DNA of 64,000 nt from Chloroflexia bacterium (GCA_036386675.1 DASVVE010000065.1:11408-75407); one strand, 5' to 3'. Counted from the first letter of the stretch, positions 4,565 to 57,391 are shown. Notes: generated by a model not told the origin, from the letters alone. Numbers and translations are program-made.

Positions 4565-4701
4565 GGTTTCCTTCTTCCACCAGGCCCAACATCGCAGGCT
4601 TTGGTCTACTGCACATCGACATTAGACAATTAGCACTTAACCCGGTTCCATGTTACACCAGCGTGAGGTCAAGTGCAACAAGCAACAGGTCCAGGCGTAT
4701 C

Positions 4702-6430: not shown

Positions 6431-7993
6431 TCAGCCCGGCAAAACCTGGTGGCTGCCAGGGCGGCGGCAGAATCTTCTCAGCGCCTCAAGGTCGGAGCTT
6501 TGAAAATGGCCGGCGCCAAGCAAGGTCTCGTGAGCGGCGGCATCTACTATCATGGCAACCGGCGTATCCATGCCTTCCATTTGAACACGGGACAGCGCAC
6601 CCTGGAAGGCTAGCACAGCATCGGCATGGCGAATCAGAGCGCCCAACTCGGGCGCGCCGGGGGCGAGTATATGGTGTACGTAGCCATCTGCCACGCTCCA
6701 TGTATGTGCTGCCCCTGCTTCTGGTGTGGCTACGGCGACCAGGTAATCGGTAGCAAGGGCGCTCGCAACACGCGCCGCCTCGGTGTCGGAGGGACCAGAG
6801 GGGCCAGCCACGACTAGCACCCGATTGGGCAGCGCTTCAGCGGTGAGATCGTACAGGTTCAGCGCGGCGGCTATCTGGCGCGAGGTTTCGGCGTACTCAC
6901 TCCCGGCGAACTGAGGCTCCCACAAGCGGCCCAGCAGCGGGAGTATCTCCCGGTCGGACCTCACTCGTGCCGCCTGGATACGATGCCGCTCCTCCATGAG
7001 CCGAGGCAGAAGCGAATTGAAGCGGTCAATCGCCGCCAGGTGAGCGACGCTGACCCGAGGCAGACTTTCCACGTTGGCCGGGTTGTTGTCCTTCGGGCCG
7101 CCGAGGTTGTAGTCCTTCCGGTCGAAAGCGTCACCCGCGGCGAGTAATGCGCGCTTGTAGAGCAGCAATAGCGCCCCGGATAGCAGTCGCTCCATGTTAC
7201 CCGACTCGTAGTTCTTGAGGACCGTAGCGAGGGAGTTGCATTCCCACAGGGTGTAGCGGCGGTGAGCGGGCTGCCGAGTGCCTGTCGCGCCGCCTATGTG
7301 CCGGACCAGCGCGTCAGGCGCATACACCACCCTGTATCCGAGCACCCACAGCCTCCAACCCAGATCGACGTCCTCAAAGTAGGCGAAGAAGCTGGGGTCG
7401 AAGCCTCCAACGTCGAGGAAAGTTCGCCTGTGTATGAGCATCGCCCCGCCTGAGGCGAAAAGCAATGGGCTGCCCTTACCTGGCGGCTGGGGAGCGTCCG
7501 GCCAGCCCCAGACCGACCTGGGCCGCCCCACACCGAACAGGTTCGACGATGCCCCGTTGAACTCGATCTCCTTGCCGTCCCGCGACATTATCCGGGAAGC
7601 CACGCACACGGTTCCCGGCTCGGCTTCATCCAGCGCCTCAAACATCCGGTTGAGCCACTGCGGGTCGGACATGGCGTCGTCGTTGAGGAAGGCCACGTAG
7701 TCGCCGCTCGAGTCGGCAGCGCCCCGGTTGCAGGCGGCGGCGAACCCGGTGTTCTGCTCCAGGCGCACGCAACGCACACCCAGTTCCGGCGCGTGCACGG
7801 CTCTATACGTGCCGTCGCCGGAGCCGTTGTCCACCACCGTGACCTCAAGCCTGTCCACCGGGTAATCAAGCGCGCGCACCGACCGGAGGCACTCGCGCAA
7901 CAGGGCTAGATTGTTGTACGTGGGGATGACCACCGACACGCTTCGTGCCCCTGGCTGGGTGCCGGTGTTTACGGCTGTGGGATTAGCGTTCAC
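6431..7993 (-). CDS. Family 2 glycosyltransferase (GT-A) with an approximately 220-aa C-terminal extension
   Basis: VSVVIPTYNNLALL...VVDNGSGDGT and DxD-type motifs typical of GT2. Overlaps the upstream GT gene by 11 nt, so likely operonic. Confidence 0.85.
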   Translation of the reverse strand: MNANPTAVNTGTQPGARSVSVVIPTYNNLALLRECLRSVRALDYPVDRLEVTVVDNGSGDGTYRAVHAPELGVRCVRLEQNTGFAAACNRGAADSSGDYVAFLNDDAMSDPQWLNRMFEALDEAEPGTVCVASRIMSRDGKEIEFNGASSNLFGVGRPRSVWGWPDAPQPPGKGSPLLFASGGAMLIHRRTFLDVGGFDPSFFAYFEDVDLGWRLWVLGYRVVYAPDALVRHIGGATGTRQPAHRRYTLWECNSLATVLKNYESGNMERLLSGALLLLYKRALLAAGDAFDRKDYNLGGPKDNNPANVESLPRVSVAHLAAIDRFNSLLPRLMEERHRIQAARVRSDREILPLLGRLWEPQFAGSEYAETSRQIAAALNLYDLTAEALPNRVLVVAGPSGPSDTEAARVASALATDYLVAVATPEAGAAHTWSVADGYVHHILAPGAPELGALIRHADAVLAFQGALSRVQMEGMDTPVAMIVDAAAHETLLGAGHFQSSDLEALRRFCRRPGSHQVLPG

Positions 7994-10900
7994 CGGTGAC
8001 TCCGTTGTACTCCAGGCTCATGACGAGATAGCCGGAAGCGGGAATACCGTCATCGTAGCGCTGTGCCCGCAGGTCGCCCGACCGCGCGCTGCCTCTCAAG
8101 CTTATGGCGTCACCGGGCACCCCATCAGGCGACTCCGCCACGAAGTAGAAGGCGCGTCCCGCCGAGTCCGGGATGGGCGGGAAGCGGAGGGCGAGCAGTT
8201 GGCCTTGCGTCAGGTTGTGGGTGGGTATCTCTATGTGGAACAGGTCAACGGAGGCACCGGGGTTGTCCCGCAGGCGCAGGAATAGACGCGAGGTGTTGCG
8301 CCTCCCGAACGTCTCCACCTGTACCCTGACCCCCGACAGGCCGGTCTCCGCCACGTAAAACCGCTGCCCCAGGCTGTGCCCGGCGACAAGCTCGGGGAGT
8401 TGCACCTGCCCGGCCAGCGGCGCGCTGACGGCCCCCTTTACGCTCCTCAAAACCTCATTTGCCCTTGCCCTCACTTGCGCGGGGACGGTGCGCCGCCGGT
8501 CGTGCACGGTCTGGAGCTTGCGGGCGGCCTGCGGTTGGGAAGGCACCAAACCGTCGACATGAGGTGCTATGCCCCCGGCGGTGACGTAGCGGCTTGGGTC
8601 TCTGAGTGTGCTGTGTTCGTCCCGGCGCGCAGTGCGGCTCATGCGGGCGCTGCGAATGTAGGGGTCGCGCACGAAGCGGTCGAGTGCGTCCACAGTGAGG
8701 TCCCAGGTAAACCGCTCCCTCGCCAGGCGGGCCGCATTTTCGCCCCGTCTGCGCGCCTCTGACGGGTCGGCCAGGATGCTGGCAACTATGGCACGTAGCC
8801 CATCGGGATCGTCGTGCCGCACGATCCAACCCGCCTCGTGCTCGCGTATCACACCGGCCACCTCGCTGAAGGCGGCATGGATGACAGGCAGACCGCACCA
8901 GAGGTAGTGCACCGTGCGGCTGGGGAAGGCCAACTGGCGCTCGGCGTTGGGCTGCATCACGTCCACCGCCACATGCGCGAGGGTATATCGCTCCACCAGC
9001 GCATCGTGCGGCAGCAGGCCCGACATGCTCACGCTCGGCATAGTTGCGAGTTGGTCCACCAGCGGTCCAAAGCCGCCCGTATGCACCGCGTGGAAGGGGT
9101 GCTTGCCACCTATCACCTCAAGCCGCCCGCGCCCCTGCTCCTGTAATTCGGAGGCGACGGCAAGCAGCGCGGGTGCCGGGTTCTGCCAGGGCAGGAAAAT
9201 GCCCCCGTAGACGAAGCGCACCTCCTGGCCCCCCCAGTCCTGCGGCCAGACGTGTTGAGGTTGTTCGGGGTCGAGGGAATAGGGGATGACCTGAAGGGAG
9301 TTGCCTATATCGTCCGGGTGAACGCCCGCCTGCGCGAGCCACGCGGTGAAGTAGTATCGCTGACGCTCGCTGATGCAGGTGAAAAAGTCGGCACGTTCCA
9401 GGGCCACCAGTTTCTCCTCCGCATTAGCTCGTGCATCAAGGTGCTCCTGGTAGATACGCTCCAGCAGGTGCGGCCCCGTGAGGTCGAGGGCCACGGGCAG
9501 GTTGGCGCGCGGCAGCCAGGTCAGGTTCGGCCAGCCGCACGACACGATCACCTCCGGCGCGAGCGTGTCCACCATGCTTTGCAGCGTCTCCGGCGTCCAT
9601 GCCCCACGTACGTATTCGAGCGGCACCTGGCTCTCACGCCCCTGTATTGCAGCCTTCGGCATTGTGAAACGCACCTTATGCCCCCGGCTCTCCAGCCCCT
9701 TGCCCAGCGCCCACGCCCGGATGCCGGAGCCGCTGGCGGGGATATCGCCCACCGGCAGCACGTCCGGGCTTATAAGCAGCACGTCCTTGGGTTGGCCGTC
9801 CCAAAGTTGCTCTATACCGAACTCATGCAGCACCGCATGGTGCGCCGCCGAGTACGGGGCATCGGTCTCGTGGTTCAGCAGGTGCACTCGCCCCGGCTGG
9901 CCGAACCGGGCAAAAAGCTCTTCATCGGTGCGCTTGCGATTGGCCTGTAGCCACTCCCGCTTGGGCGTCATCTTCTCAATAGTGGCGCGGAACTCGTCGG
10001 CGGCAAGAAGGGTGGCTATGCCGTTGCGATGGACGTGGTCAGTACCCGCCTCCACGGACTGAGTAGGGCGGGCCTGGGTGAAGTCGTAGTCACCCAGTTG
10101 CACGCCGCCCAGTTCCATGAAGCGCACGACACGCTGGCCCAGGAGCAGGAGCGCGGCCGGGAGGATTTTATCGAGGTTCGACTGCTCGTAGTTCTTGTAA
10201 ATCGTGTAGAGGGCATTGCGCTCGTAGATCACCTGCCAGCGGTGATTACCGACGTCGGTGGCGGTGCCGTGATGGCGGTGGTAGGTGATGGCGGTCGGTG
10301 TGAGCGTGATACGATGGCCCAGCAGCCACAGCCGCCAGCCCAGGTCAACGTCCTCGAAGAAGGCGAAGTAGTCCGGGTCGAAGCCGCCCGCGTGCAAGAA
10401 GACCTCGCGCCTGATGAGCATCGAGCCGCCGCACGCGAAGAGTAGCTCCCGCGCTTCGGGGTGGACGGCATCTACGGGCAGGCCATAGGAAGGCTGGAAC
10501 CCGAAGCCGTGGAAGTTGACCGAGCCTGAGTAGAAGTCAATCTTCTTGCCCGCCCAGTCGAGCATGAGAGAGGAGGTACACACCACGCCCTGCGCTGCCC
10601 CGGCAAGGAGACTGTTTACCAGTTCGGTGAGCCAGTACGGCTCCACGCGGGTGTCGTTATTAAGAAAGGCGACGTATTCACCTGACGCCCGTTCAGCCCC
10701 GTAGTTATTCCCCGCCGCGAAGCCGAGGTTCGACCCGGTCTCCACTAACCGCACCGTGGGGAAGCGCTCCCGCATGAACTCCAACGACCCGTCCGCAGAC
10801 CCGTTATCGACCAGCAGCAACTCCAGCCGGTCCTTAGGGTAGTCGAGCGACAGCAGCGACGTGAAGCAGGTCTCCAGGTGCCGCAGGCCATTGTAGTTGA

Positions 10901-11069
10901 GCACGACGACGGAGACAGTGGGGATTTTGGATTTTGGATTTTGGATTTTGGATTGTTCGGAGAAAGAAGATACAGCGCGCTCAAGGAGAGGCTCGTTGCT
11001 CGTCGGCTGGACCGACGGAGATGTATCGACGGGTATGTGATCAGGAGAGTGGTTCAAGCTAGAGAGCAC
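7983..11069 (-). CDS. Fused GT2 (GT-A) and GT4-like (GT-B) bifunctional glycosyltransferase with an uncharacterised approximately 230-aa C-terminal domain. Start codon is uncertain.
   Basis: N-terminal SVVVLNYNG...LLLVDNGSADGS (GT2). Middle GT-B Rossmann domain with an E-x7-E-like region (RFVYGGIF...CGLPVIHAAFSEVAGVI). An N-terminal stretch is encoded by a GGATTTT heptamer array. Confidence 0.8.
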   Translation of the reverse strand: MLSSLNHSPDHIPVDTSPSVQPTSNEPLLERAVSSFSEQSKIQNPKSKIPTVSVVVLNYNGLRHLETCFTSLLSLDYPKDRLELLLVDNGSADGSLEFMRERFPTVRLVETGSNLGFAAGNNYGAERASGEYVAFLNNDTRVEPYWLTELVNSLLAGAAQGVVCTSSLMLDWAGKKIDFYSGSVNFHGFGFQPSYGLPVDAVHPEARELLFACGGSMLIRREVFLHAGGFDPDYFAFFEDVDLGWRLWLLGHRITLTPTAITYHRHHGTATDVGNHRWQVIYERNALYTIYKNYEQSNLDKILPAALLLLGQRVVRFMELGGVQLGDYDFTQARPTQSVEAGTDHVHRNGIATLLAADEFRATIEKMTPKREWLQANRKRTDEELFARFGQPGRVHLLNHETDAPYSAAHHAVLHEFGIEQLWDGQPKDVLLISPDVLPVGDIPASGSGIRAWALGKGLESRGHKVRFTMPKAAIQGRESQVPLEYVRGAWTPETLQSMVDTLAPEVIVSCGWPNLTWLPRANLPVALDLTGPHLLERIYQEHLDARANAEEKLVALERADFFTCISERQRYYFTAWLAQAGVHPDDIGNSLQVIPYSLDPEQPQHVWPQDWGGQEVRFVYGGIFLPWQNPAPALLAVASELQEQGRGRLEVIGGKHPFHAVHTGGFGPLVDQLATMPSVSMSGLLPHDALVERYTLAHVAVDVMQPNAERQLAFPSRTVHYLWCGLPVIHAAFSEVAGVIREHEAGWIVRHDDPDGLRAIVASILADPSEARRRGENAARLARERFTWDLTVDALDRFVRDPYIRSARMSRTARRDEHSTLRDPSRYVTAGGIAPHVDGLVPSQPQAARKLQTVHDRRRTVPAQVRARANEVLRSVKGAVSAPLAGQVQLPELVAGHSLGQRFYVAETGLSGVRVQVETFGRRNTSRLFLRLRDNPGASVDLFHIEIPTHNLTQGQLLALRFPPIPDSAGRAFYFVAESPDGVPGDAISLRGSARSGDLRAQRYDDGIPASGYLVMSLEYNGVTGER
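10922..10955 (+). repeat. Tandem heptanucleotide array (GGATTTT)x4 + GGATTG inside the 5' coding region of the fusion GT
   Basis: Read directly: ggattttggattttggattttggattttggattg. Translated as QSKIQNPKSKIP in the ORF. Confidence 0.9.
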
Positions 11070-11100
11070 CTTGCAAGCGAAATAGTCACGATGAAGCGAC

Positions 11101-11136
11101 CAAATCTAAAATCTAAAATCCAAAATCAGAAATACG
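11101..11136 (-). repeat. Tandem heptanucleotide array (GATTTTR)n in inverted orientation, in the 5' leader of the fusion GT gene
   Basis: caaatctaaaatctaaaatccaaaatcagaaatacg is the reverse complement of a GATTTTG/GATTTTA array. It forms an inverted pair with 10922-10955 across the start codon. Confidence 0.85.
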
Positions 11137-11140
11137 TCCT

Positions 11141-12463
11141 CTATTTTCCCAGCAGGCGGGAGACGCGGCGAGTCAGGCGAAGCACTCGGCCCTGCTCGAT
11201 CCCTTGTAGGAGCTTCTCAAGGTAGAGGATATGTTCGTCTTTGGTGCGTAGCTCATTGGTGAGGCGAGACTCCAGATTGGCGATGTGCTGGTCCTTGGAC
11301 GCTAGCTCCCGGTTCATCTCGTCCAACTGTTGCAGGTCGTGGTGGGCGCGGTCGAGTTGCAAGTCCAGCACGGCCAGGCGCTGCTCCATGCCCGCTATGT
11401 GGCGGTCGCGCGCCTCGAGTTGTTGGCGCAGCAGGCGGTCCTCGTGGTTGGCGGTCTTGAGGTCCAACAGCGTCATGAGCACCTGCGTGAGTTGCAGGCG
11501 CATGGTGTTAGCAGTGTCGCTGCTCGTTAACGGCGGGTACGCTGCCTGTATCCGCTCAAGCGCCGGTTCGAGGCCAGGTCGCACCGCCACTACCACCCCC
11601 CGATAAGCGGGCGCGGTCCGGTCCGAGTCGGAGAACGTCAGGTTGTAGAAGCGGTCGAGGGTACGCTCGAAGCCACTAGCTTTCTCGTCGCGTAGCGAAA
11701 TAAGGTAGTGTTTAGCTATCATCATCAACAGCCAGTTGTAGACGTTGGCTGCCGGGAAGGAATGAGTACGCCAGCCGTTGCGCTCGAACGCGTCACCCGT
11801 CGAGGAGAAATCAGGCAGGCCGAAATCGCGGTGCTCCCTCAGCTGCTCCTGCTGGGCATCCAATATCCAACGTATATATTCGTCCAGGGTCTCCTCGGCC
11901 ACGTCCGCTTCCACCGACTGCACGGGGTTAATCAACACGCAGGCGTGGCGGGCCACCCGCATCATCTCGGTGAGAAAGCGGTCGCGCTCTGTGTTGGGGA
12001 TATGTTCCAGGGTGTCGAGCGCCGTGACGATATCGAAGGAGCGGTCTGGGTAAGGCAGGTCCATGCCCGAACCCTGCGTGTAGTTGGGGATCGAGCCGTC
12101 GTCCGAGACCACGTCGAGCACGTGCACGTCAAAGTAGACTGGGCTGACGAAATGGTGCAGCACGCCAGGATAGCCGCCCACGTCGAGTATTTGGGATTTC
12201 GGATTTCGGATTTCGGATTGGTTGGGAGCCTGGGAAATACCGGAGATGGAGTCGGGTGACGTGCGGCTGCCGAAGCTCACGTCGGCCATGCTCTCAAGCA
12301 GGATAGTGAGCACGTTCTCGGCGATGCGCATGCGGCCATACTGGTCGAAGGGTAGGGAAAGTAAGTCGCCCTCGCGGGGGGCAAGGCTAGCCTCGAAATC
12401 CTGTCTCTGCAAGGCTGGGACTGCTCCAATCTGGGGTCTGCGTTCTGCGGGGTAGTATAACAC
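11141..12463 (-). CDS. Class I SAM-dependent methyltransferase with a C-terminal coiled-coil region
   Basis: Motif I ILDVGGYPG, followed by acidic post-I and motif II features. C-terminal heptad-like repeats (LESRLTNELRTKDEHILYLEKLL ...). Lies in the glycosyltransferase operon. Confidence 0.75.
   Translation of the reverse strand: MLYYPAERRPQIGAVPALQRQDFEASLAPREGDLLSLPFDQYGRMRIAENVLTILLESMADVSFGSRTSPDSISGISQAPNQSEIRNPKSQILDVGGYPGVLHHFVSPVYFDVHVLDVVSDDGSIPNYTQGSGMDLPYPDRSFDIVTALDTLEHIPNTERDRFLTEMMRVARHACVLINPVQSVEADVAEETLDEYIRWILDAQQEQLREHRDFGLPDFSSTGDAFERNGWRTHSFPAANVYNWLLMMIAKHYLISLRDEKASGFERTLDRFYNLTFSDSDRTAPAYRGVVVAVRPGLEPALERIQAAYPPLTSSDTANTMRLQLTQVLMTLLDLKTANHEDRLLRQQLEARDRHIAGMEQRLAVLDLQLDRAHHDLQQLDEMNRELASKDQHIANLESRLTNELRTKDEHILYLEKLLQGIEQGRVLRLTRRVSRLLGK
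12194..12222 (+). repeat. Tandem heptanucleotide array (GGATTTC)x3 + GGATTGG inside the methyltransferase coding region
   Basis: gggatttcggatttcggatttcggattgg. Translated as QSEIRNPKSQI, the same frame and peptide pattern as in the GT gene. Confidence 0.9.
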
Positions 12464-12503
12464 GTGAAACGTGAAACGTGAAACGTGAAACGTGAAACGT
12501 GAT
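12462..12503 (+). repeat. Tandem heptanucleotide array (ACGTGAA)x6 in the divergent promoter region between the methyltransferase and the EEP gene
   Basis: acgtgaaacgtgaaacgtgaaacgtgaaacgtgaaacgtgatgg. Starts 1 nt after the methyltransferase start codon position. Confidence 0.9.
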
Positions 12504-12545
12504 GGGGTTTGGCAACGTTAAGGGTGTAAGACTGTTTGGAGGTGG

Positions 12546-13550
12546 TTGGTGCTGAGGAAATTGAGGCCGGGGTTGCTGGTCATGTCGACAGGCTATCCCG
12601 TGGCGCTGTTGCTACTGATGGGGATGCACGCCTTGATGCCTCAGCGTGGGGGCGTGCTTGCGCTCACCCAGATATTCGCACCCTATCTCTTCCTGCCGTT
12701 GCTCGCCTTGCTGACACTCGCGTTCCTGAGGGGAGCAGTGCCCCTGCGGGTCGCGCTGCTGCTTTGCATGGTGGTATTTGGTCTGCGCTTCATGCCCCGG
12801 TTGGCGTCGCCAGTTGTTGAGCCTACGCCAGGTGCGATGCAGATTACGGCACTCAGTTGGAACGTGGAAGTTGGGGGCGACCCGGCCTCAATCAGGGAGA
12901 TGCTGTTGGCAAAACAGCCTGACATCGCCGCGTTCCAGGAAATCGACTGGCTACCACTGCAACGTGACCCGGAGTTGTTGAGCCTCTACCCTCATTTCTT
13001 TGTGCAGCCGCCCTACGATGCTACATCCGGCATGGTGCTCCTGAGCAAGTTCCCCATGCTGGAGGCGCGTGTTCCTGAGCTTGATCCTTCGCTTTGGGCG
13101 CGCCCCAGGATGGTAGAGGCGAAGCTGAATGTTGGTGGGCAGACCCTCAATATCTTTTCTGTCCATCCTTCTCCCCCTGGCGGAGGGTGCCGTTATTTCC
13201 TCTGCTACGATTCTGCCCTGCGGGATGCCAGACTCTCGGCCATACGTGCCCACATTGAACCTGCCGTGCTGAAGGGGGAGGCAGTGCTTCTGGTGGGTGA
13301 CTTCAACACCACTGAGCGGGAACCTGGCTACTGGGACGTGTCGCGAGGCTTGCAGGATAGCTACAGGGCGGTAGGGGCAGGCATCAGCAACACATGGGGT
13401 CCGCCCTGGATAAGGGACCGCGGCTTTGCTCTCTTGCGCATCGACTACATATTTTCCGGGCCGAAGCTTCGCCCGCTACAGTTCGAGGTCGACTGCAAGT
13501 CGAAGAGTAGCGACCATTGTGCGCTCATGGGCAAGTTTGAGCTGCATTAG
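12546..13550 (+). CDS. Membrane-anchored endonuclease/exonuclease/phosphatase (EEP) family protein
   Basis: Three N-terminal TM helices, then EEP signatures (SWNVE, QEIDW, HPSPP, GDFNTTE, SDHCAL). TTG start per the ORF track; alternative ATG at 12582. Confidence 0.7.
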   Translation: MVLRKLRPGLLVMSTGYPVALLLLMGMHALMPQRGGVLALTQIFAPYLFLPLLALLTLAFLRGAVPLRVALLLCMVVFGLRFMPRLASPVVEPTPGAMQITALSWNVEVGGDPASIREMLLAKQPDIAAFQEIDWLPLQRDPELLSLYPHFFVQPPYDATSGMVLLSKFPMLEARVPELDPSLWARPRMVEAKLNVGGQTLNIFSVHPSPPGGGCRYFLCYDSALRDARLSAIRAHIEPAVLKGEAVLLVGDFNTTEREPGYWDVSRGLQDSYRAVGAGISNTWGPPWIRDRGFALLRIDYIFSGPKLRPLQFEVDCKSKSSDHCALMGKFELH

Positions 13551-13640
13551 AAAGAGGCTTGCACCGCAGCCGCACAAAAGGGGCACGATTGTGCGTGCCC
13601 CTTTTAACATTGCCACTTCTGACCAGCCTACCGCCAACCG

Positions 13641-14735
13641 TTATCGCTTGCTGAAGAAAGCCACCGGCGCGCCACGCTTGGCTTCCTGCTGGCGGTAGGC
13701 TACCACGCTCACCTGGGCGGCGAGGTTGCGGGCTACCTGCATAAAGGCCTCGGCTTCCGGGGTGCCGGGCGAGTCCACCACGACGGGGCGGCCTTCATCG
13801 CCACCTTCCCGGATGCGCAGGTGGAGCGGGATTTCGCCGAGGAAGGGGACGCTGTAGCGGGCTGCCGCCGCCTGCGCGCCACCGTGTCCGAACAGGTCCG
13901 TGGGGTTCTGGCAGTGGGGGCAGACGAAGGTGCTCATGTTCTCCACGATGCCGAGCACCGGCACGTTGAGCTTCTTGAACATCATCAGCGCCTTGCCCGC
14001 GTCGAGCAGCGCCACGTCCTGCGGTGTGGAGACCATCACCGAGCCTGTAAGCGGCACCGACTGCGCGGTGGTGAGTTGCACGTCGCCCGTGCCCGGCGGC
14101 ATGTCCATCACAAGGTAATCCAGCTCGCCCCACTCAACGTCGTACATGAACTGGGTGAGCAGCTTGGTGAGCATCGGGCCGCGCCAGATGACCGGGCTAT
14201 CGGCGTCGATGAAGAAGCCCATCGACATGATCTTGATGCCGTAGGCTTCCACCGGGGCGATCTTCTCGCCAACCTGCTGCGGCTTGGCCGAGGTGCCCAT
14301 CATCAGGGGCACGTTGGGGCCATAAACGTCGGCGTCAAGCAGCCCGATTCTCGCGCCGTCACGAGCCAGGGCCAGCGCCAGGTTGACTGCCACGGTGCTC
14401 TTGCCCACGCCGCCCTTGCCGGAGCCTACCGCCACGATGTTGCGCACGCCGGGTATACCCTGCCGCTCGGTCATGATGCCCTGCCGCACGCGGGAGGTCA
14501 TGTTCGCGCTCACGTCGCGCACGCCCGGTATGGCGGACACCACGGACTCCGACTGCTGCTTCAGTTGCTCCTTGACCGGGCACGCCGGGGTGGTGAGCAC
14601 GACGTTGAAGGACACGTTATTGCGGTCGTCTATGTTAAGTTCTTCTATGAAGCCGAGCGATACGATGTCGCGCCCCAGGTCCGGGTCTTTGACGACGCTC
14701 AGCGCCTGTAACACCTGCTCTTTTGTGATTGGCAT
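13641..14735 (-). CDS. apbC: Mrp/ApbC/NBP35 Fe-S cluster carrier ATPase
   Basis: N-terminal DUF59-like domain, deviant Walker A GKGGVGKST, and a CPHC motif. Start likely at the second ATG (MPITKEQ), which is preceded by GAAAGG. Confidence 0.9.
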   Translation of the reverse strand: MPITKEQVLQALSVVKDPDLGRDIVSLGFIEELNIDDRNNVSFNVVLTTPACPVKEQLKQQSESVVSAIPGVRDVSANMTSRVRQGIMTERQGIPGVRNIVAVGSGKGGVGKSTVAVNLALALARDGARIGLLDADVYGPNVPLMMGTSAKPQQVGEKIAPVEAYGIKIMSMGFFIDADSPVIWRGPMLTKLLTQFMYDVEWGELDYLVMDMPPGTGDVQLTTAQSVPLTGSVMVSTPQDVALLDAGKALMMFKKLNVPVLGIVENMSTFVCPHCQNPTDLFGHGGAQAAAARYSVPFLGEIPLHLRIREGGDEGRPVVVDSPGTPEAEAFMQVARNLAAQVSVVAYRQQEAKRGAPVAFFSKR

Positions 14736-14749
14736 GGGTGCCATCCTTT

Positions 14750-14784
14750 CGATTTTGGATTTTAGATTTCGGATTTTGGATTGC
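14750..14784 (+). repeat. Tandem heptanucleotide array (GATTTTG/GATTTTA/GATTTCG)n in the 5' leader directly upstream of the mrp/apbC RBS
   Basis: cgattttggattttagatttcggattttggattgc. Ends with GGATTG like the other arrays. Confidence 0.9.
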
Positions 14785-15027
14785 TTAGTTTGTGATGTTA
14801 TTGTGCAGAATTGCGCAAAGTGTGCGCTACCGTTATGGTACTTGCTTTTCTAATCTATGTCAATGAATCCAGCTTGCTTTGCACCAGGACAAAGGCCGGG
14901 CCAGATTGCCTTTGGAGGTACCTGATTGGTACCTTGTTTAGTGCCCTTGGGATTGCCATTGAACAGTGGTGTATCTGTTGTACCCAAGAATTGACACGCC
15001 GCCGCGCGTGCTCTATAAACGAGCCAT

Positions 15028-17520
15028 ATGACTTCGGATGTATCTACCAGGACCGTGCTCCACGGAGCGGCGTCTCACTCGCGCACTCGGCGGATGCTTA
15101 TGCTGATTGGCCCCCCTGCCCTCTTCATGCTGCTCAGCGCATTGTTCCTGTGGCGGCCCATAGTCACGGGGCAGGTCTATTTGCCCACCGACCTGAGCTA
15201 CAAGTACGACTACATGTGGATAGGTCACGAGCCGCCCGCGGGCACGAAGATAGACCAGAACCACACCGTATCCGACGTGTCCGACTATTTCTATCCCTCC
15301 GTTACCTACGCTATCGAGCGCCTGCGCGCCGGGAACTTTCCCCTGTGGAACCCCTACATCCTGACCGGAACCCCCTTCTTTGCCTCAGGCCAGCAGGCAG
15401 TGTTGGACCCTGTAAACCTTATGGCTTTCCTGGCGGGGCCGCACGACTACTGGACCTGGGCGGCCTGGCTGAGGCTGGCGCTGCTGGGCTTTACCACCTA
15501 CGGGTTCATGCGCGCGCTCGGCAGGAACGCGGCGGCTGGAATAGCGTCGGGTGTGGTTTTCATGGTGTGCGGGTTTGCCGTCGTATGGCTCAATTACGCC
15601 ATTACCTGGTCCCTTGCCTGGATGCCCGCGCTTTTCTGGGCGAGCACGCGGCTCTTGCAGACCGGGCGGCTGCCGTGGATAGGGCTTACCGGAGTGGCAA
15701 TGGGCGCGTTACTGCTCAGTGGGCACCCGGAAACGCAGTTCCTGTGCGGGCTGTTGTGGGCGGCCTACATGGTGTATGCCCTGTTCGTTTTCAGGGCGAG
15801 TACGAGACAGCGGTTTGCCGGGTCTGGACAGGTCGCTGCCGCTGTGGCCCTGGGCCTGGGCATGGGCGCGGTGCAGTTCGTACCCACGCTCGACTTCATG
15901 GTCTCGAGCGGCGCATTCGGCGCGCGTTCCACCGACGTCCAGCCCTTCAACCTTGGAGAGACGGCGTTGCGCTTCATCAGCCAGCTATTCCCCAATTGGA
16001 CGGGCACCCCGCTGGCCGACACTTATTGGGTGCGTCCCGAACTCACCAATTTCAACGAGCAGACCGGTTATATAGGCATCCTCGCCCTCGGGTTGGGTGC
16101 GCTGGGTGCCGCGTCGATGTGGAAGCGCGACCGGCTGGTGCCTTTCTTCGGCATGTGTTCGGTGCTCGCGCTCCTGGTAGCAATACGCGCGCCCGGTTTC
16201 CACCTTGTGAAGGCGTTGCCCGTATTGAGCGCAGGGCATGGGGTGCGCTGGCTGGTAGTCGTGTCGTTCTTCGGGGCGGTGCTGGCCGGGTACGGCGTCG
16301 AGGCGCTGATGAAGCAGTCTTCCGGCTCGCGCAGGTTGAGGGATAGCGGGCTATGGCTGGCGAGTGGCGCGCTTGCGGCGTTCGGTCTCATGCTGGCGAT
16401 CTACCTGGGCATACGTGACCTTAGCTGGGACCGCGCCTGGAACCCGATGCTCAGCCACGTAGACATGGCGCGACTCCTCTATCCCGCGCAACTGGCTAAT
16501 AACTGGCCGGTGGTCTTCCTGGGGCTGGGGGCGCTCGTAGTGCTCGCCCGCTGGAGGGGCTTGATACCGGCGGCTGCCTTGCCCACGCTCATCGTGGCCC
16601 TGCTGTACGCCGACCTCTGGACGTTCGGCCATGGCTACAACCCCACAACGCCACGCGAGGCCATCATGCCGCCCACACAGGTGACAAGTTACCTGTCCGA
16701 ACACGCGGGCCACGACCGCATGGCGGGCACCATCAACCTGCTGCGCCCTAATGTTGCCATGCTGTTCGGCTTGCGCGATCTGCGCGGGTACGAGCCTATC
16801 GTAGACGATGCCTTCGCGCACCTGTATGAGGATTTCTACCACCAGTTGAGCACTCCCGTGTTCGACGTGCAACGCAAGCAAGACCTGGAGCTTACCGCGA
16901 TGGAGCAGCGCCAGTTGAACATTGCCGGGGTGCGCTACGTCGCCACCGTCCGCAAGCCCAGGGTGGACGGCAGCGCCAGGCCCTACACGTTCATCCTACA
17001 GGAGCAACGCGCCGCGCTTTATGAGAACCTCGAAGCGTTCCCCCGCGCCTATGTCGTATTCGGCTCCCGCGTCGTTCCTGACACGGACGAAGCCACTGCG
17101 GTCCTGCGATCGCCGGAACTGGACCCAGGTCGCACTATCGTGCTGGCTTCCGGCCAGGAAGTAGCCCCTCCACCCGGCTTGGACAGGACCACCGCTCTCG
17201 TAACGTGGCTGGCGGATGAACCTGAACGAGTCGAGTTAGAGGTCACCCTGCCGCAAGCAGGTTGGCTCGTCTTAAGCGACAATTTCGCGAGCGGTTGGGA
17301 GGCTATGCTGGACGACAACCCGGCACCACTCCTGCGGGGAAACGTGGCCTTTCGCGCGGTGGCCGTACCGGCAGGGACGCACAACATCAGCTTCCACTAC
17401 CGGCCCGCCCTCTTCTTCGTCGCCGCGACTATAAGTACCCTGTCTGCCGCACTCGCACTCAGCCTGGGCCTAATACACCTCATACGGCGGTCTCGTCGCT
17501 CTAGCCCCACTAACCACTAA
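15028..17520 (+). CDS. Large polytopic membrane protein, YfhO-like / GT-C-type (putative glycosylation or glycan export function)
   Basis: At least 12 predicted TM helices over the first approximately 480 aa, a approximately 300-aa soluble domain, and a terminal TM helix; this architecture is typical of YfhO-family proteins. The overlapping 511-aa +2 frame ORF has aberrant composition and is rejected. Confidence 0.5.
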   Translation: MTSDVSTRTVLHGAASHSRTRRMLMLIGPPALFMLLSALFLWRPIVTGQVYLPTDLSYKYDYMWIGHEPPAGTKIDQNHTVSDVSDYFYPSVTYAIERLRAGNFPLWNPYILTGTPFFASGQQAVLDPVNLMAFLAGPHDYWTWAAWLRLALLGFTTYGFMRALGRNAAAGIASGVVFMVCGFAVVWLNYAITWSLAWMPALFWASTRLLQTGRLPWIGLTGVAMGALLLSGHPETQFLCGLLWAAYMVYALFVFRASTRQRFAGSGQVAAAVALGLGMGAVQFVPTLDFMVSSGAFGARSTDVQPFNLGETALRFISQLFPNWTGTPLADTYWVRPELTNFNEQTGYIGILALGLGALGAASMWKRDRLVPFFGMCSVLALLVAIRAPGFHLVKALPVLSAGHGVRWLVVVSFFGAVLAGYGVEALMKQSSGSRRLRDSGLWLASGALAAFGLMLAIYLGIRDLSWDRAWNPMLSHVDMARLLYPAQLANNWPVVFLGLGALVVLARWRGLIPAAALPTLIVALLYADLWTFGHGYNPTTPREAIMPPTQVTSYLSEHAGHDRMAGTINLLRPNVAMLFGLRDLRGYEPIVDDAFAHLYEDFYHQLSTPVFDVQRKQDLELTAMEQRQLNIAGVRYVATVRKPRVDGSARPYTFILQEQRAALYENLEAFPRAYVVFGSRVVPDTDEATAVLRSPELDPGRTIVLASGQEVAPPPGLDRTTALVTWLADEPERVELEVTLPQAGWLVLSDNFASGWEAMLDDNPAPLLRGNVAFRAVAVPAGTHNISFHYRPALFFVAATISTLSAALALSLGLIHLIRRSRRSSPTNH

Positions 17521-17540
17521 CCACTAACCACTAACCACTG
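17508..17540 (+). repeat. Tandem heptanucleotide array (CTAACCA)x4.5 overlapping the stop of the YfhO-like gene, upstream of folE
   Basis: cactaaccactaaccactaaccactaaccactgag. A single inverted copy (tggttag) lies 30 bp downstream, next to a TATACT -10-like hexamer. Confidence 0.9.
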
Positions 17541-19437: not shown

Positions 19438-19504
19438 AGAGGGGAAGATGGTTCTACAACTTCCCCCTCGCTCGTATTCACGCACCAACAATAGCAAGCC
19501 GCAT

Positions 19505-19540
19505 CACGTTTCACGTTTCAGCACCACGTTTCACGTTTCA
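19505..19540 (-). repeat. GAAACGT heptamer array (two doublets) overlapping the stop of the GNAT gene
   Basis: cacgtttcacgtttca gcac cacgtttcacgtttca is the reverse complement of (TGAAACG)n. Same unit and same terminal GAAACGTGATG as at 12462 and 54667. Confidence 0.85.
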
Positions 19541-20061
19541 CCAACCAGTCTGTCCAGCCCCTCCCTATCGAGCCTGTAGATGTGCCAGTCAGCCAGATGG
19601 CGGGCACCCAACCGCTCGTAGAAGTTGATGGCGTGTTGGTTCCAGTCGAGCACGGCCCACTCGAAGCGACCGCAGCCCCGGCGTATCGCTTCCTCGGCGC
19701 AATGGCTGAAGAGGGCGTACCCCACACGCCTGCCTCGGTACTCCTCTAGCACAAATAAGTCTTCCAGGTACAGGGTCGGCAGGGCCAGGAAGGTGGAGTA
19801 AGTCTCAAAGACGAAGGCGTACCCTGCAACGTCACCCTCGTGCTCGGCAAGGAAGATCTCAAACCGGGGCCGGGTGCCAAAAGCATCGTCCAGGAGGCGC
19901 GACTGTGCCGTCGCGTCGGGGGGAGGTAACTTCTCGAAGTCAGCCAGCGCGGTAATAAGACGCACGATGGCCGGCCCGTCCTGAGGCGTTGCGCGGCGGA
20001 CGCTCACGCCGGGCGTTTGGGACGCTATTTCACCTGCTGAATTAGACATCGGTGGCTCCAA
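19531..20061 (-). CDS. GNAT-family N-acetyltransferase
   Basis: Acetyl-CoA-binding motif RGRRVGYALFSHCAEEAIRRGCGRFEW, with the GNAT beta4-alpha3 pattern. Confidence 0.8.
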   Translation of the reverse strand: MEPPMSNSAGEIASQTPGVSVRRATPQDGPAIVRLITALADFEKLPPPDATAQSRLLDDAFGTRPRFEIFLAEHEGDVAGYAFVFETYSTFLALPTLYLEDLFVLEEYRGRRVGYALFSHCAEEAIRRGCGRFEWAVLDWNQHAINFYERLGARHLADWHIYRLDREGLDRLVGET

Positions 20062-37626: not shown

Positions 37627-38673
37627 TTATGGCTCCTTGGTAGGTTTGGGTTCTTTCGTCGGCTCAGGCTCGTCCGTTGGTTTGGGTTCCTTGGTCGGCT
37701 TAGGTTCGTCAGTGGGCTTTGGTTCTTTGGTTTCCTTTGGCTCTCTGGTCTCCTTCGGCTCCTCGGTTGGCGGGACCTCCTGGGTTGCCGTAGGCTCCTG
37801 TGTGGGTACGCTCGTAAGTATGGCTGCCTGCGTTGGGGTAGTGGTTGGGGTATGCGTAGGCTCCACGTACGGCTGGGGAGTCGGAGTTGGCGTATCGGTA
37901 GGCAAGCTCAATACAGGTGTGTTGGTAGCTGTGGACGGTGAAGGAGCGCTCTTTTCAGTCGGCGTGGCTGAAGGCTTGGGTTTGCTATTCGAGGGTTCGG
38001 CTGTAGGCTTCGGGGTGTCCGTGGGCTTGGGCTGGGAACGCTCGCTAACGGGAGAAGCCGTAGGCACACTCGTCGGAGAAGCTTCAACAGCCGGGCGCTG
38101 ACCTTCCTCAACCGGGGTCCTGCGCGGTTGAGTTGTGGCAGTTGCCGTGTGCGTCGGTTGAGCAGTATTCGTGGCGATTACCTCAGCAAGGGCTGTAGGA
38201 GTTGCCGTTGCCGTGTTCGTAGGTGTGGATGTGGGAGCGACCTGCCTTGCTTGCCTGATAGGCGTCACGGTCCTGGTGGGTGTGGGTGTGGCGGTGGTAG
38301 CAGGGGCTGGTGTGGCCTTGCCGGATTGCTCTTGAGGGGAGGGTGTTTCTGTGGGTGCCAGCCAGGTAAGGCTGGGCGACTGCGGCACCAACCCGTCGGC
38401 ATCATCGCGCTCGAACATCTCGTTGTCCTTGGCTACAGCCGCTGCTATGTCCGCGCTGAGAGGCATGTACACGACGCCGGCCGGGTCCTGGCTGTAGTCC
38501 GCCACCCTGTAGGCCTTCACTTCGCCACGTAGCCACGGCAGATTAGGCGGCAGGAGGGCCAGCCACGCGGTCGCGAATAGCGCGGCCATTCCCAACAGAG
38601 TACCTACCGCGAGGACGCGGAGCTCGCCTGAGGTCTGTCTCGAACGTGGTGCTCTAATGAGATTGGCCCGCAT
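37627..38673 (-). CDS. Membrane-anchored Pro/Thr-rich protein with C-terminal (KEPKPT)n tandem repeats
   Basis: N-terminal TM helix, long PT-rich low-complexity region, and approximately 8 hexapeptide repeats encoded by an 18-nt tandem repeat at 37630-37770. Start overlaps the stop of the cyclase gene at 38673. Confidence 0.55.
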   Translation of the reverse strand: MRANLIRAPRSRQTSGELRVLAVGTLLGMAALFATAWLALLPPNLPWLRGEVKAYRVADYSQDPAGVVYMPLSADIAAAVAKDNEMFERDDADGLVPQSPSLTWLAPTETPSPQEQSGKATPAPATTATPTPTRTVTPIRQARQVAPTSTPTNTATATPTALAEVIATNTAQPTHTATATTQPRRTPVEEGQRPAVEASPTSVPTASPVSERSQPKPTDTPKPTAEPSNSKPKPSATPTEKSAPSPSTATNTPVLSLPTDTPTPTPQPYVEPTHTPTTTPTQAAILTSVPTQEPTATQEVPPTEEPKETREPKETKEPKPTDEPKPTKEPKPTDEPEPTKEPKPTKEP

Positions 38674-53645: not shown

Positions 53646-54658
53646 TCCCGCCGGAAGACTTCAGGGTTGACGCAATTCGGCGGCATCTCACCCTTGAGTG
53701 CGGCGATTATGTTCTCTGCGGCCATGAGGGCCATGGCGTTGCGGGTGTCCAGGGAGGCTGAGGCGATGTGGGGGGCAAGCACCGCGTTGTCCAGTTCGAG
53801 CAGACCGGCGTGCACCTCCGGCTCTCTCTCGAACACGTCGAGTCCCGCGCCCGCGATTGTGCCATTCTTGAGGGCTTCTACCAGGGCCGCTTCGTCCACT
53901 ATGGCACCGCGAGCAGTGTTTATCAGGTAGGCCGTAGGCTTCATGCTCTCAAGCTCTGGCTTGCCTATCAGGTGGTGGGTCTCCGGGTTGTAGTCGGTGT
54001 GAATTGTCACATAGTCTGACTCGCTCAGCAACTCCTCCATAGTTACCAGGCGGGCTTTCAGAGCCTTCTCGGTGTCCGCGTCGGCGGGGTGCCTGTCGAA
54101 GTAGAGCACCTGCATGTCGAAGCCGGTGGCCCGCTTGGCGACCGCCTTGCCGATGCGCCCGAACCCTATTACCCCCAGCGTCTTGCCGTACACGTCCTGC
54201 CCTACCATCATGAGCGGCCCCCACCCATAAAAGCGGCCCGCCCTCAGGAACTTGTCGGCCTCCACCACGCGCCGCGCCGCGGCCATCAGGAGCGTCCAGG
54301 CAAAGTCGGCTGTGGTGTCGGTGAGCACACCCGGCGTGTTGGTCACCGCTATGCCCCGCGTGGTAGCTTCGTCCACCTGGATGTTGTTGTAGCCAACGGC
54401 CATGTTCGCCACGACCTTGAGCGCAGGAGCGGCGTCCAGCACCTCGGCATCGATAGGGTTGGTAAGCAGGCAGTACAGGGCGTTGTATTCGCCCCCGTGT
54501 AGGCGATCTATCAGCTCCTGCTTGGTCCAGATACGGTCGGGGTCCGGGTTGACGTCGAGCGTGCCGTCCTCACCGGCGACCTGGCGCAATCGCTCTATGG
54601 CGACTTCCGGCACGCGCTGGGTCATCAAGACACGCAAAGTCTCTTCAGGCATGTTCAC
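53642..54658 (-). CDS. D-isomer-specific 2-hydroxyacid dehydrogenase (glyoxylate/hydroxypyruvate reductase-like)
   Basis: NAD-binding GVIGFGRIGKAVA; catalytic R/E/H region (RGAIVDE, PHIASAS). Confidence 0.85.
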   Translation of the reverse strand: MNMPEETLRVLMTQRVPEVAIERLRQVAGEDGTLDVNPDPDRIWTKQELIDRLHGGEYNALYCLLTNPIDAEVLDAAPALKVVANMAVGYNNIQVDEATTRGIAVTNTPGVLTDTTADFAWTLLMAAARRVVEADKFLRAGRFYGWGPLMMVGQDVYGKTLGVIGFGRIGKAVAKRATGFDMQVLYFDRHPADADTEKALKARLVTMEELLSESDYVTIHTDYNPETHHLIGKPELESMKPTAYLINTARGAIVDEAALVEALKNGTIAGAGLDVFEREPEVHAGLLELDNAVLAPHIASASLDTRNAMALMAAENIIAALKGEMPPNCVNPEVFRRD

Positions 54659-54666
54659 TCCGGGTT

Positions 54667-54764
54667 CTGAAACTTGAAACGTGAAACGTGATGGTACTCA
54701 ACGCACCATTGCGATGCACATGAGACCACATACCACAAGCCACACCACGTTTCACGTTTCAGAA
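54667..54764. repeat. Inverted pair of GAAACGT heptamer arrays flanking a approximately 55-bp spacer
   Basis: ctgaaacttgaaacgtgaaacgtgatgg at 54667-54694 and cacgtttcacgtttca at 54748-54763. The right array overlaps the stop of the small ORF at 54759. Confidence 0.85.
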
Positions 54765-54914
54765 TGAGGGTGTCGGTGTCGTGGTGTTCATGTTCAGCCA
54801 CCAGAGTATCCAGCAGAAGGCGAAGCAGGCCCCGAGTATCAGCACTATAGTGAGGAGTGGGAGCAATATGTTGAGTACCGGGTTTCTCTTCCTGGTTGCA
54901 GGGCTACCGATCAT
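54759..54914 (-). CDS. Possible 51-aa single-pass membrane protein downstream of the helicase gene
   Basis: MIGSPATRKRNPVLNILLPLLTIVLILGACFAFCWILWWLNMNTTTPTPSF: basic N-terminus plus one strongly hydrophobic helix. Below the ORF-track length cut-off. Confidence 0.3.
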   Translation of the reverse strand: MIGSPATRKRNPVLNILLPLLTIVLILGACFAFCWILWWLNMNTTTPTPSF

Positions 54915-57305: not shown

Positions 57306-57310
57306 AGCTC

Positions 57311-57391
57311 CATTATAAATTACGAATTACGAATTACTGGCGAACCGGCATCTTGTCATTCGTAATTCGTAATTCGTAATTCGTAATTACT
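57311..57391. repeat. Inverted pair of ATTACGA heptamer arrays (3 + 4.5 units) around an 18-nt spacer in the helicase 5' leader
   Basis: aaattacgaattacgaattac ... cattcgtaattcgtaattcgtaattcgtaatt; predicted approximately 20-bp stem. Confidence 0.9.

Follow-up and report, generated by a model that had tools for sequence, protein, structure and literature searches.

Inverted heptamer arrays around a glycosyltransferase start codon belong to a lineage-wide class of hairpins in Chloroflexia

Two short heptamer arrays lie in inverted orientation on either side of the translation start of a fusion glycosyltransferase gene in a Chloroflexia bacterium, and this pair belongs to a class of hairpins, built from inverted heptamer arrays, that is found across the lineage. 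The pair sits in a 64,000-nt stretch of DNA (GCA_036386675.1 DASVVE010000065.1:11408-75407), which we call the window. Judging from aligned orthologs, the pairing between the two arrays is conserved, with compensatory change, while the heptamer sequence itself has changed, and it is mainly this comparison that excludes chance. The pairing evidence does not show selection at the level of RNA. The reading that we favour, tentatively and as one that may well prove wrong, is that within a polycistronic mRNA the pair serves as a clamp or processing stem of double-stranded RNA derived from an SSR.

Results

Two inverted arrays in the window

The window has a GC content of 61%. Along its minus strand run, in order, genes for a SAM methyltransferase, a GT2+GT1 fusion glycosyltransferase, a second GT2 protein and an HD-domain protein (Pfam). 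The 3′ arm of the pair (10919..10955, minus strand) lies within the fusion gene, where the coding strand reads (AAAATCC)~5 and forms glycosyltransferase codons 35-45 (peptide QSKIQNPKSKI), ending two codons before the GT2 β-1 strand TVSVVVLNYN. Tandem Repeats Finder reports this array as 4.7 copies of GGATTTT at 10922-10954, with 100% matches. The 5′ arm (11101..11136, minus strand) is a GGATTTT/AGATTTT array in the spacer between the methyltransferase and glycosyltransferase cistrons, and its onset is 7 nt past the methyltransferase stop codon (TAG, 11143-11141). Here the same program finds 3.7 copies of AAATCTA (94%) at 11102-11127 or, with a period of 14, an array reaching 11133; from 11102 to 11133 the sequence reads AAATCTA AAATCTA AAATCCA AAATCAG, an imperfect array of the reverse-complement unit. 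The unit, GGATTTT/AAAATCC, contains no run of three G.

A separate inverted-repeat search joins 10924-10954 to 11103-11133 as 31-nt arms spaced 148 nt apart, with a best sub-arm of 26 nt that is 92% complementary. The initial annotation, that the two arrays are reverse complements of each other, is confirmed at its stated coordinates. The complementarity is real, but the leader array is imperfect and the 31-nt arms are 87% complementary; three G-to-A changes in the leader array place A·C mismatches in the sense RNA. The enclosed loop (10956..11100, minus strand; ~148 nt) holds a small local hairpin (11102-11083, minus strand), an SD-like AAGGTG, a TTG start and codons 2-34, which encode a Pro/Ser-rich variable linker opening with the conserved N-terminus M-NHPPDY.

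Complementarity is retained among orthologs

We compared the window with 19 orthologous fusion-gene loci from Chloroflexia MAGs (60-94% identity) and three from metagenomes. A metagenome scan for closer orthologs returned only these three, at 69-73% identity and all without arrays, and in a protein search the closest match was a fragment with 81% identity over 54% of the query. Because no more close array-bearing orthologs were found, the covariation rests on five loci, effectively three lineages. Besides the window these are L004, L001, L002 and L007, independent MAG assemblies with 88-94% protein identity that carry the pair at the orthologous place. In all four, the leader array is the reverse complement of that locus's own coding-region array, although the units differ, being AAAATCC in the window, L004 and L001, AATCCGC/AATTCCC in L002 and GAAATTC/AATTTCC in L007. 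The complementarity described initially for one sequence is thus preserved, with compensatory changes, in four others.

RNAalifold over the five loci keeps the stem, and its whole fold includes 15 pairs in which both sides have changed. Within a named stem of 34 pairs, 88.8% of cells pair, compared with 81.9% in shuffles, and 11 pairs are changed on both sides, compared with 4.2; none of 500 shuffles reaches either value, and every slid control on this stem is far worse. The arms of L002 and L007 contain mixed unit variants in mirrored order. They match at 77-80% in register, a figure that falls to 48-70% after displacement by 7 or 14 nt, and because the mirrored variants match in register, the arms are position-by-position complements, beyond what two arrays of one unit would give.

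Arm-arm duplex energies point the same way. They are −28.2 kcal/mol in the window and −42.3, −44.1, −61.7 and −52.1 kcal/mol in the others, and in each of the five loci the energy beats all 200 shuffles of the 3′ arm, with a narrow margin in the window (−28.2 vs a shuffle minimum of −26.5). Among the 14 orthologs without the pair, duplex energy is at shuffle background in 13, and L005 is weakly better. We considered this last locus, a 70% ortholog, as a further carrier and rejected it; its candidate pairing is degenerate and bulged, with an unconvincing duplex energy of −23 vs a shuffle mean of −18.

Exchange between the arms at the DNA level would yield an equal covariation pattern, which counts against the RNA-clamp reading. 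Slippage during replication could make the microsatellites and template switching the inverted copy, leaving an RNA stem that is incidental and nearly neutral, and it would then be gene conversion between the two arms or quasipalindrome correction, not selection, that keeps them complementary. Slippage combined with template switching of this kind also yields mirrored variants and 'compensatory' changes, and arms that are often perfect, with mirrored unit variants, are what recent copying would give. Against such a by-product, the 148-nt spacer is long for hairpin-templated correction, and the pair has persisted across five diverging lineages while the loop diverged. Long inverted repeats are, moreover, usually a deletion hazard, and their persistence implies at least tolerance. 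We take this origin to be a serious possibility, if on balance not one that we expect to hold.

A class of heptamer hairpins between co-directional genes

A census of arrays in the window and 23 Chloroflexia loci, 316 kb altogether, recovered 68 arrays of period 7 compared with 0-6 for each other period in the range 4-12. The density of period-7 arrays was 218 per Mb, ~12 times the 18 per Mb found in 1.16 Mb of unrelated loci that came from the same searches. Partners were counted in 293 kb (the window, L001-L019 and L055), which holds all 69 arrays. These comprise 27 different canonical heptamers with a mean unit GC of 42%; 31 of the 69 lie no more than 400 nt from an inverted array built on the same unit, compared with seven that have a direct partner. 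Each hairpin has its own heptamer unit.

The usual layout is an upstream stop codon, often within the first unit, followed by the 5′ array, a loop, the inverted 3′ array, an SD and the next start codon. Arms are 15-38 nt long and often perfect, and loops span 3-77 nt. The hairpin mostly begins 0-17 nt after the stop (40 nt in one case) and ends 2-19 nt before the next start; at several junctions the start follows the hairpin by 2-6 nt and has no SD. Two further members are found in the window itself. In the first, an inverted pair of (AATTACG)n arrays (57309..57388, minus strand) with arms complementary at 20 of 20 positions and a 24-nt loop, the upstream TAA stop lies in unit 1, and the hairpin is followed by TATAATGGAGCT-ATG, with GGAG as SD and the ATG at 57305. 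In the second, an inverted pair of (AAACGTG)n arrays (54665..54764, also delimited as 54791-54668, minus strand) with 19-nt arms and a 62-nt loop, unit 1 contains the TGA stop of a 47-codon ORF, and an SD (GGAG) and an ATG at 54658 follow the 3′ arm.

The dominance of period 7 (68 arrays vs at most six) and the many different heptamers in use suit a by-product of replication. Further, mismatches on the sense strand are symmetric across hairpins (G·U 8 vs A·C 9, too few to decide); no sense-RNA-specific selection is visible in these counts, which again speaks against an RNA clamp, as does the geometry of the pair studied here. It is the only class member seen with a coding 3′ arm and a loop enclosing a start codon, and this arrangement, with its 148-nt loop, is unlike that of all other members observed. 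By contrast, a replication by-product does not readily account for the placement of these hairpins, which were seen only in co-directional, operon-internal gaps: ~12 of ~12 independent hairpins lie between co-directional genes, compared with a background of 66-72% for gaps of 40-600 nt (p ~0.01-0.03).

The start codon and a translated arm

The translation start of the fusion gene is TTG 11057-11055, which follows the ORF's first GTG (11069) by 12 nt, with AAGGTG (11072-11067) as its SD, 9 nt upstream. Fourteen orthologs share the N-terminus M-(N/S)H(P/S)PD(Y/H)..PP.TP directly after a GTG or TTG, and third codon positions within it vary among them. L001 has an in-frame TAA after the upstream GTG and before the TTG, so a common start at the GTG in the 11069 position is excluded. 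The gene (7983..11057, minus strand; ORF 11069..7983) therefore encodes 1024 aa, rather than the 1028 aa initially given, with PF00535 at residues 53-224 and PF00534 at residues 670-780 (Pfam). Arrays in coding sequence and beside starts can mislead gene callers in this way; here the longest ORF starts four codons early.

The linker that follows varies in length, and the distance from the upstream stop to GT2 ranges from 137 to 230 nt, yet the NHPPDY N-terminus is in frame with the GT2 β-1 strand (Pfam model position 1 = residue 53) in 14 of 14 loci. There is no usable start codon between the heptamer array and β-1. Because the N-terminus stays in frame with GT2 in all 14, the linker, heptamer array included, is translated; by this comparison of reading frames, the coding-region array is part of a variable N-terminal linker. 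None of three features, this translated in-gene arm, the TTG start at 11057 and membership in a wider class, was mentioned in the initial annotation.

A heptamer array early in a surface-polysaccharide-type gene, with a unit length that is not a multiple of 3, brings to mind phase variation, in which gain or loss of a 7-nt unit would shift the glycosyltransferase frame and switch the gene off and on, a mechanism that pathogens use for their lipopolysaccharide glycosyltransferases. In that case the leader array would be of secondary importance. Copy number does vary at a nearby promoter array, but the number of units in the coding-region arm is identical in the window, L004 and L001, and the frame is intact in every ortholog that bears the NHPPDY N-terminus. 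Arrays of only 4.7 units also have a low expected slippage rate, and frame switching leaves the complementary leader arm and the covariation unexplained. We regard it as quite improbable.

The upstream gene encodes a class I SAM methyltransferase with a coiled-coil tail (11141..12463, minus strand; exact start uncertain). It contains a second translated array, (GAAATCC)n (12187..12219, minus strand; NQSEIRNPKSQ), just before methyltransferase motif I (LDVGGYPG), and this array shares its AATCC core and sense orientation with the 3′ arm. A pairing of the leader arm with a methyltransferase array 1 kb upstream was considered and set aside, given that array's location in a translated gene and the lack of covariation on visual comparison.

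Both arms probably lie on one transcript

A promoter-like site (12482-12454; TTCACG-17-TATACT, TG extension) precedes the methyltransferase gene and is kept together with the 5′ UTR in all five loci. It is overlapped by a (CACGTTT)5.9 array (12454..12502, minus strand) whose copy number ranges from 3 to 6 units among the five orthologs, a sign of active repeat dynamics that favours a replication by-product. This site is likely to be the promoter of the operon, with the leader arm internal to the transcript. A promoter-like scan found no minus-strand site between 11140 and 11057, and between the two genes there is no credible terminator, the weak match at 11102-11083 being the sole candidate. 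Based on these promoter-like and terminator-like scans, both arrays are most likely carried on one transcript.

The same data bear on whether the element is itself a transcription terminator or attenuator acting between both genes. Its position directly after a stop codon and the weak terminator-like hairpin would fit, but the arms are AU-rich, lie 148 nt apart and are followed by no U tract. In addition, terminator-like sites occur at shuffle expectation (4 vs 4.0), and there is no downstream promoter-like site from which glycosyltransferase transcription could restart. A terminator is very improbable.

Predicted folding and the accessibility of the start

In the minimum-free-energy structure of the sense RNA (11150-10900; −63 kcal/mol), the arrays form one long-range helix. 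Folding of the minus strand, proposed at the outset as a check, gave a structure better than 198 of 200 dinucleotide shuffles, the other two being as good, although with z = −2.26 the signal is modest. The hairpin is predicted in all five array-bearing loci, with z = −5.71 for the sense RNA of L002. As anticipated, the SD and the start codon, together with 34 codons, are enclosed by the predicted stem of roughly 30 bp. Across the five loci the outer stem accounts for 34-65 kcal/mol. Rfam covariance models gave no match at E ≤ 1 for 10000-15200 on either strand.

In the window the antisense RNA folds better than the sense RNA (−80.5 kcal/mol, z −3.06) because of the three G-to-A changes in the leader array. 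That the window's sense stem is less stable than those of the other four loci, and than its own antisense, counts against the RNA-clamp reading and fits a by-product of replication.

The initial annotation had offered a translational gate as one function. A gate in which the stem hides the ribosome-binding site is not supported, as blocking the 5′ arm leaves the predicted unpaired probabilities of the SD and start codon unchanged in each of the five loci. Part of the SD can pair in an inner helix, which is conserved in no more than the three closest loci.

A second proposal, that the arms act in DNA as a cruciform or recombination substrate, fares no better. Inverted arms do flank expression signals, and recombination of the 31-nt arms would flip a 148-bp segment with the SD and start. 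However, the orientation of this segment is constant across the five loci, with no sign of inversion, the arms are imperfect and no recombinase is encoded among the neighbouring genes; a Pfam scan of 26 window proteins found no transposase or recombinase. Cruciform extrusion needs short spacers, and a 148-bp spacer is far too long for it. An invertible switch or cruciform is thus extremely improbable.

A probable order of events at the junction

Distant orthologs have a tight junction, with 0-15 nt from the methyltransferase stop to the glycosyltransferase start, such as the TAGTG of L010 or the TAAAAGTG found in both L009 and L062; stop/start junctions this tight are the kind used for translational coupling. 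The clade of the window has an 83-nt spacer with the leader array, the small hairpin and a new SD. An AATCC-core array just before (E/D)LPTVS is more widespread, occurring in L005, L012, L016 and L017; in L012 and L016 an AATCC-core array is found directly after the start codon. The linker array of L006 has a different unit (AGGGATC) and lies mid-linker. This distribution suggests that the translated (AATCC-NN)n microsatellite in the disordered glycosyltransferase linker is the older element, and that an inverted copy and ~45 nt were inserted later, in the window's clade, at the formerly tight junction.

Discussion

If the pair acts as an RNA clamp, one polycistronic mRNA, probably initiated at the promoter upstream of the methyltransferase, would carry both arms. 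These would pair into a near-perfect stem of 26-38 bp closing a loop of ~150 nt that takes in the SD, the TTG start codon and the gene up to codon 34, and evolution would retain the pairing rather than the sequence. The stem would form in vivo and leave the SD unmasked, and ribosomes crossing codons 31-49 would have to melt it; because they do, the stem would be limited to mRNA copies in which the glycosyltransferase cistron is untranslated. Double-stranded RNA above two helical turns is the classical substrate of RNase III, and a stem of at least two turns would presumably be sensitive to it. Cleavage would cut the ribosome-binding site and 5′ coding region of the glycosyltransferase off the mRNA, and the methyltransferase cistron would then end in a 3′ structure. 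Overall, the two gene products would no longer be coupled and less would be made of the downstream one, which may be the regulatory benefit.

Extended to the whole class, this idea would make the arrays self-renewing RNA clamps that punctuate operons, with arms co-evolving through an hmw-like mechanism that depends on repeats and a hairpin or RNA, an extension that is speculative and that we consider unlikely. Because both arms are tandem arrays, the helix of such a clamp can re-form in registers shifted by 7 nt. At junctions where a start without an SD follows the hairpin by 2-6 nt, the hairpin would bridge termination and re-initiation. Were this class-wide reading true, the pair in the window would be a derived clamp that has captured a linker array and encloses the initiation region. 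The interest of the class is higher if it acts at the RNA level, and the lineage offers a dense natural series for testing RNA-level action (operon punctuation, differential stability or coupled translation) against a by-product of replication.

Several bacterial phyla have an excess of heptamer microsatellites, most of which have no known function; the sole heptamer case known to be tied to an RNA hairpin and RNase III is hmw of H. influenzae. The nearest likeness in arrangement is in Xanthomonas campestris and X. axonopodis, which have paired inverted GGGAATC arrays in 70-75 cases per genome (Rehm et al. 2015, PMC4692102). Those arrays have 7-nt units, typically in ~4 copies, and are transcribed; the pairs are mostly intergenic between co-directional genes, near or overlapping the upstream stop (PMC4692102). 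Whether an array is single or paired is preserved between species while lengths vary, and no function has been found for these common pairs (PMC4692102), which favours a by-product of replication here too. Our pair likewise consists of two same-unit arrays on opposite strands, close together, with the 5′ arm near a stop, and the intergenic, stop-adjacent placement is shared by the other class members in the window. It differs in that Xanthomonas uses one G-rich unit genome-wide, studied as a G-quadruplex former, whereas the Chloroflexia loci use many AU-rich units without G-tracts. In addition, one arm of our pair is coding and translated and its loop encloses a start codon, unlike the mostly intergenic Xanthomonas pairs.

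In H. influenzae hmw1A, an (ATCTTTC)n repeat forms one arm of a 5′-UTR hairpin, which is a target of RNase III cleavage (Rapun-Araiz et al. 2025, PMC12721329). Both systems have a heptamer repeat as the arm of a long hairpin near a surface-related gene, with transcription and the hairpin predicted in our case, and in both the structure of the partner arm, not its sequence, matters. In hmw the partner arm is G-rich and non-repeat and the hairpin lies wholly in the 5′ UTR, whereas here both arms are arrays and one is coding. The hmw repeat has at least 11 copies and is phase-variable; our arms have ~4-5 units and no copy-number variation was seen. Finally, cleavage raises expression in hmw, but here the predicted cleavage would inactivate the message.

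An excess of heptamer arrays is also described for cyanobacteria (STRR; GGGGATT in Nostoc), Beggiatoaceae (TAACTGA) and Chloroflexus aurantiacus ((GATAGRA)n satellites), where the arrays are mostly intergenic and often a few nt from a start codon (PMC4679880, PMC4692102, PMC6749651). These are described as direct arrays, with inverted arrangements rare among them: of 170 Beggiatoa sets one is inverted, and Nostoc has 'only a few' pairs. Unlike these direct arrays, 31 of the 69 in our census have an inverted partner, and the AATCC core seen here is the reverse complement of the Nostoc GGGGATT (AATCCCC).

REP, BIME and REPIN elements reportedly form hairpins after stop codons between co-directional genes and stabilize upstream mRNA. 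REP elements set relative expression within operons and belong to one sequence family per genome, spread by a RAYT transposase. The Chloroflexia hairpins resemble them in being packed between co-directional genes just after stops, and differ in that their heptamers are site-specific and their arms internally tandem. No RAYT (Y1 transposase) was found among the 26 window proteins (Pfam; window only). Long-range stems are also formed by rRNA precursors, by intercistronic RNase III sites of phage T7 and by the MS2 coat-replicase interaction. There, as predicted for our pair, distant complementary segments close a loop that holds a functional unit, with ribosomes or RNase III acting on the stem. 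In MS2 the start site itself is paired, whereas here the start is left unpaired by the arms; the rRNA and T7 stems are non-repetitive and outside coding sequence, whereas this one is built from repeats and has one coding arm.

The literature that we searched contained no description of an inverted heptamer-array arrangement in Chloroflexia. Relative to the known cases, the new features here are the diversity of units, arms that covary across orthologs, the translation of one arm, a loop with the initiation region inside it, and junctions where the start codon has no SD.

Hairpins at gene junctions

Several inverted heptamer arrays occupy the gap between a stop codon and the next start. At three such junctions in other Chloroflexia loci (L014 10485-10544, L055 3310-3383 and L016 4638-4762), the next ATG lies only 2-11 nt past the 3' arm and no SD is visible. 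Folding of the hairpin would place stop and start side by side at these junctions, which suggests hairpin-bridged re-initiation. The L016 hairpin and that of a further locus, L006 (4389-4505), occupy the orthologous mrp-to-methyltransferase junction. Their heptamers are of CGTACTG type in L016 and CGTGATG type in L006, and the arms are complementary in each; the junction is a second site at which pairing is kept while the unit differs.

Stop codon and array are merged in the window at a 47-codon ORF (54771-54913, minus strand) that encodes one hydrophobic helix (MIGSPATRKRNPVLNILLPLLTIVLILGACFAFCWILWWLNMNTTTPTPSF). In the hairpin at 54791-54668, the (TGAAACG)n arm has the TGA stop of this ORF as its first unit. 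A more elaborate arrangement lies upstream of the methyltransferase ortholog in another Chloroflexia locus, L017, which carries three arrays of ACGATGG-type units at 345-533 in the order +, -, +. The middle array is able to pair with either neighbouring array, the last array is followed by ATATATATTTTG, and we regard these alternative hairpins as attenuator-like.

Arrays in and around the methyltransferase gene

A (CACGTTT)n array with a promoter-like site (12454-12502, minus strand) lies upstream of the SAM methyltransferase gene. The array itself supplies the -35 hexamer of this site, TTCACG-17-TATACT with a TG. Orthologous arrays are found in four Chloroflexia loci (L001 ~4576-4600, L002 ~70-94, L004 ~4569-4600 and L007 ~2214-2238), with about 3-4 units against 5.9 in the window. 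In contrast to array length, hardly any variation is seen among orthologs in the -10 element and 5' UTR.

Within the gene, a second in-frame array, (GAAATCC)n (12187-12219, minus strand), is translated as NQSEIRNPKSQ directly ahead of SAM-binding motif I (LDVGGYPG). Unit substitutions in this array are homogenised per ortholog, with CCG in the window and CCC in L001.

On the antisense strand of the glycosyltransferase leader (11083-11112, plus strand), window-specific G-to-A changes turn array units into CTAAAAT. These give a -10-like TAAAAT and a promoter-like match of 9/12, directed antisense into the methyltransferase gene.

Unpaired arrays, other repeats and occurrence in other taxa

Two further sites in the window carry unpaired arrays. 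(CCACTAA)4.7 (17507-17539) overlaps the stop of a YfhO-like gene just ahead of a GTP cyclohydrolase I gene, and (TCACGTT)n arrays (19501-19541) lie between convergent genes, overlapping a GNAT acetyltransferase stop. The 18/36-nt tandem repeats at 37646-37761 are an ordinary coding repeat with no relation to the heptamer arrays: they encode the C-terminal KEPKPT(D/K)EP repeats of a 348-aa Pro/Thr-rich protein with a single N-terminal hydrophobic segment (37627..38673, minus strand).

At 14747-14782 (minus strand), imperfect copies of an AATCC-core unit (AATCCAA, AATCCGA, AATCTAA, AATCCAA, AATCGAA) form an array that terminates right at the SD-like GAAAGGA of the Mrp/NUBPL-type ATPase gene, a placement similar to that of the Beggiatoaceae TAACTGA arrays just upstream of starts. 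Arrays of AAAATCC, the unit of the window's glycosyltransferase arm, also occur in a Chloracidobacterium (L059 8624-8655), a Tychonema, which is a cyanobacterium (L060 5810-5829), and a Caldilinea contig (L061 2803-4255), where the unit is paired in inverted orientation with AAAATCG. The AATCC core also matches the GGGGATT repeat of Nostoc when that repeat is read in reverse complement.
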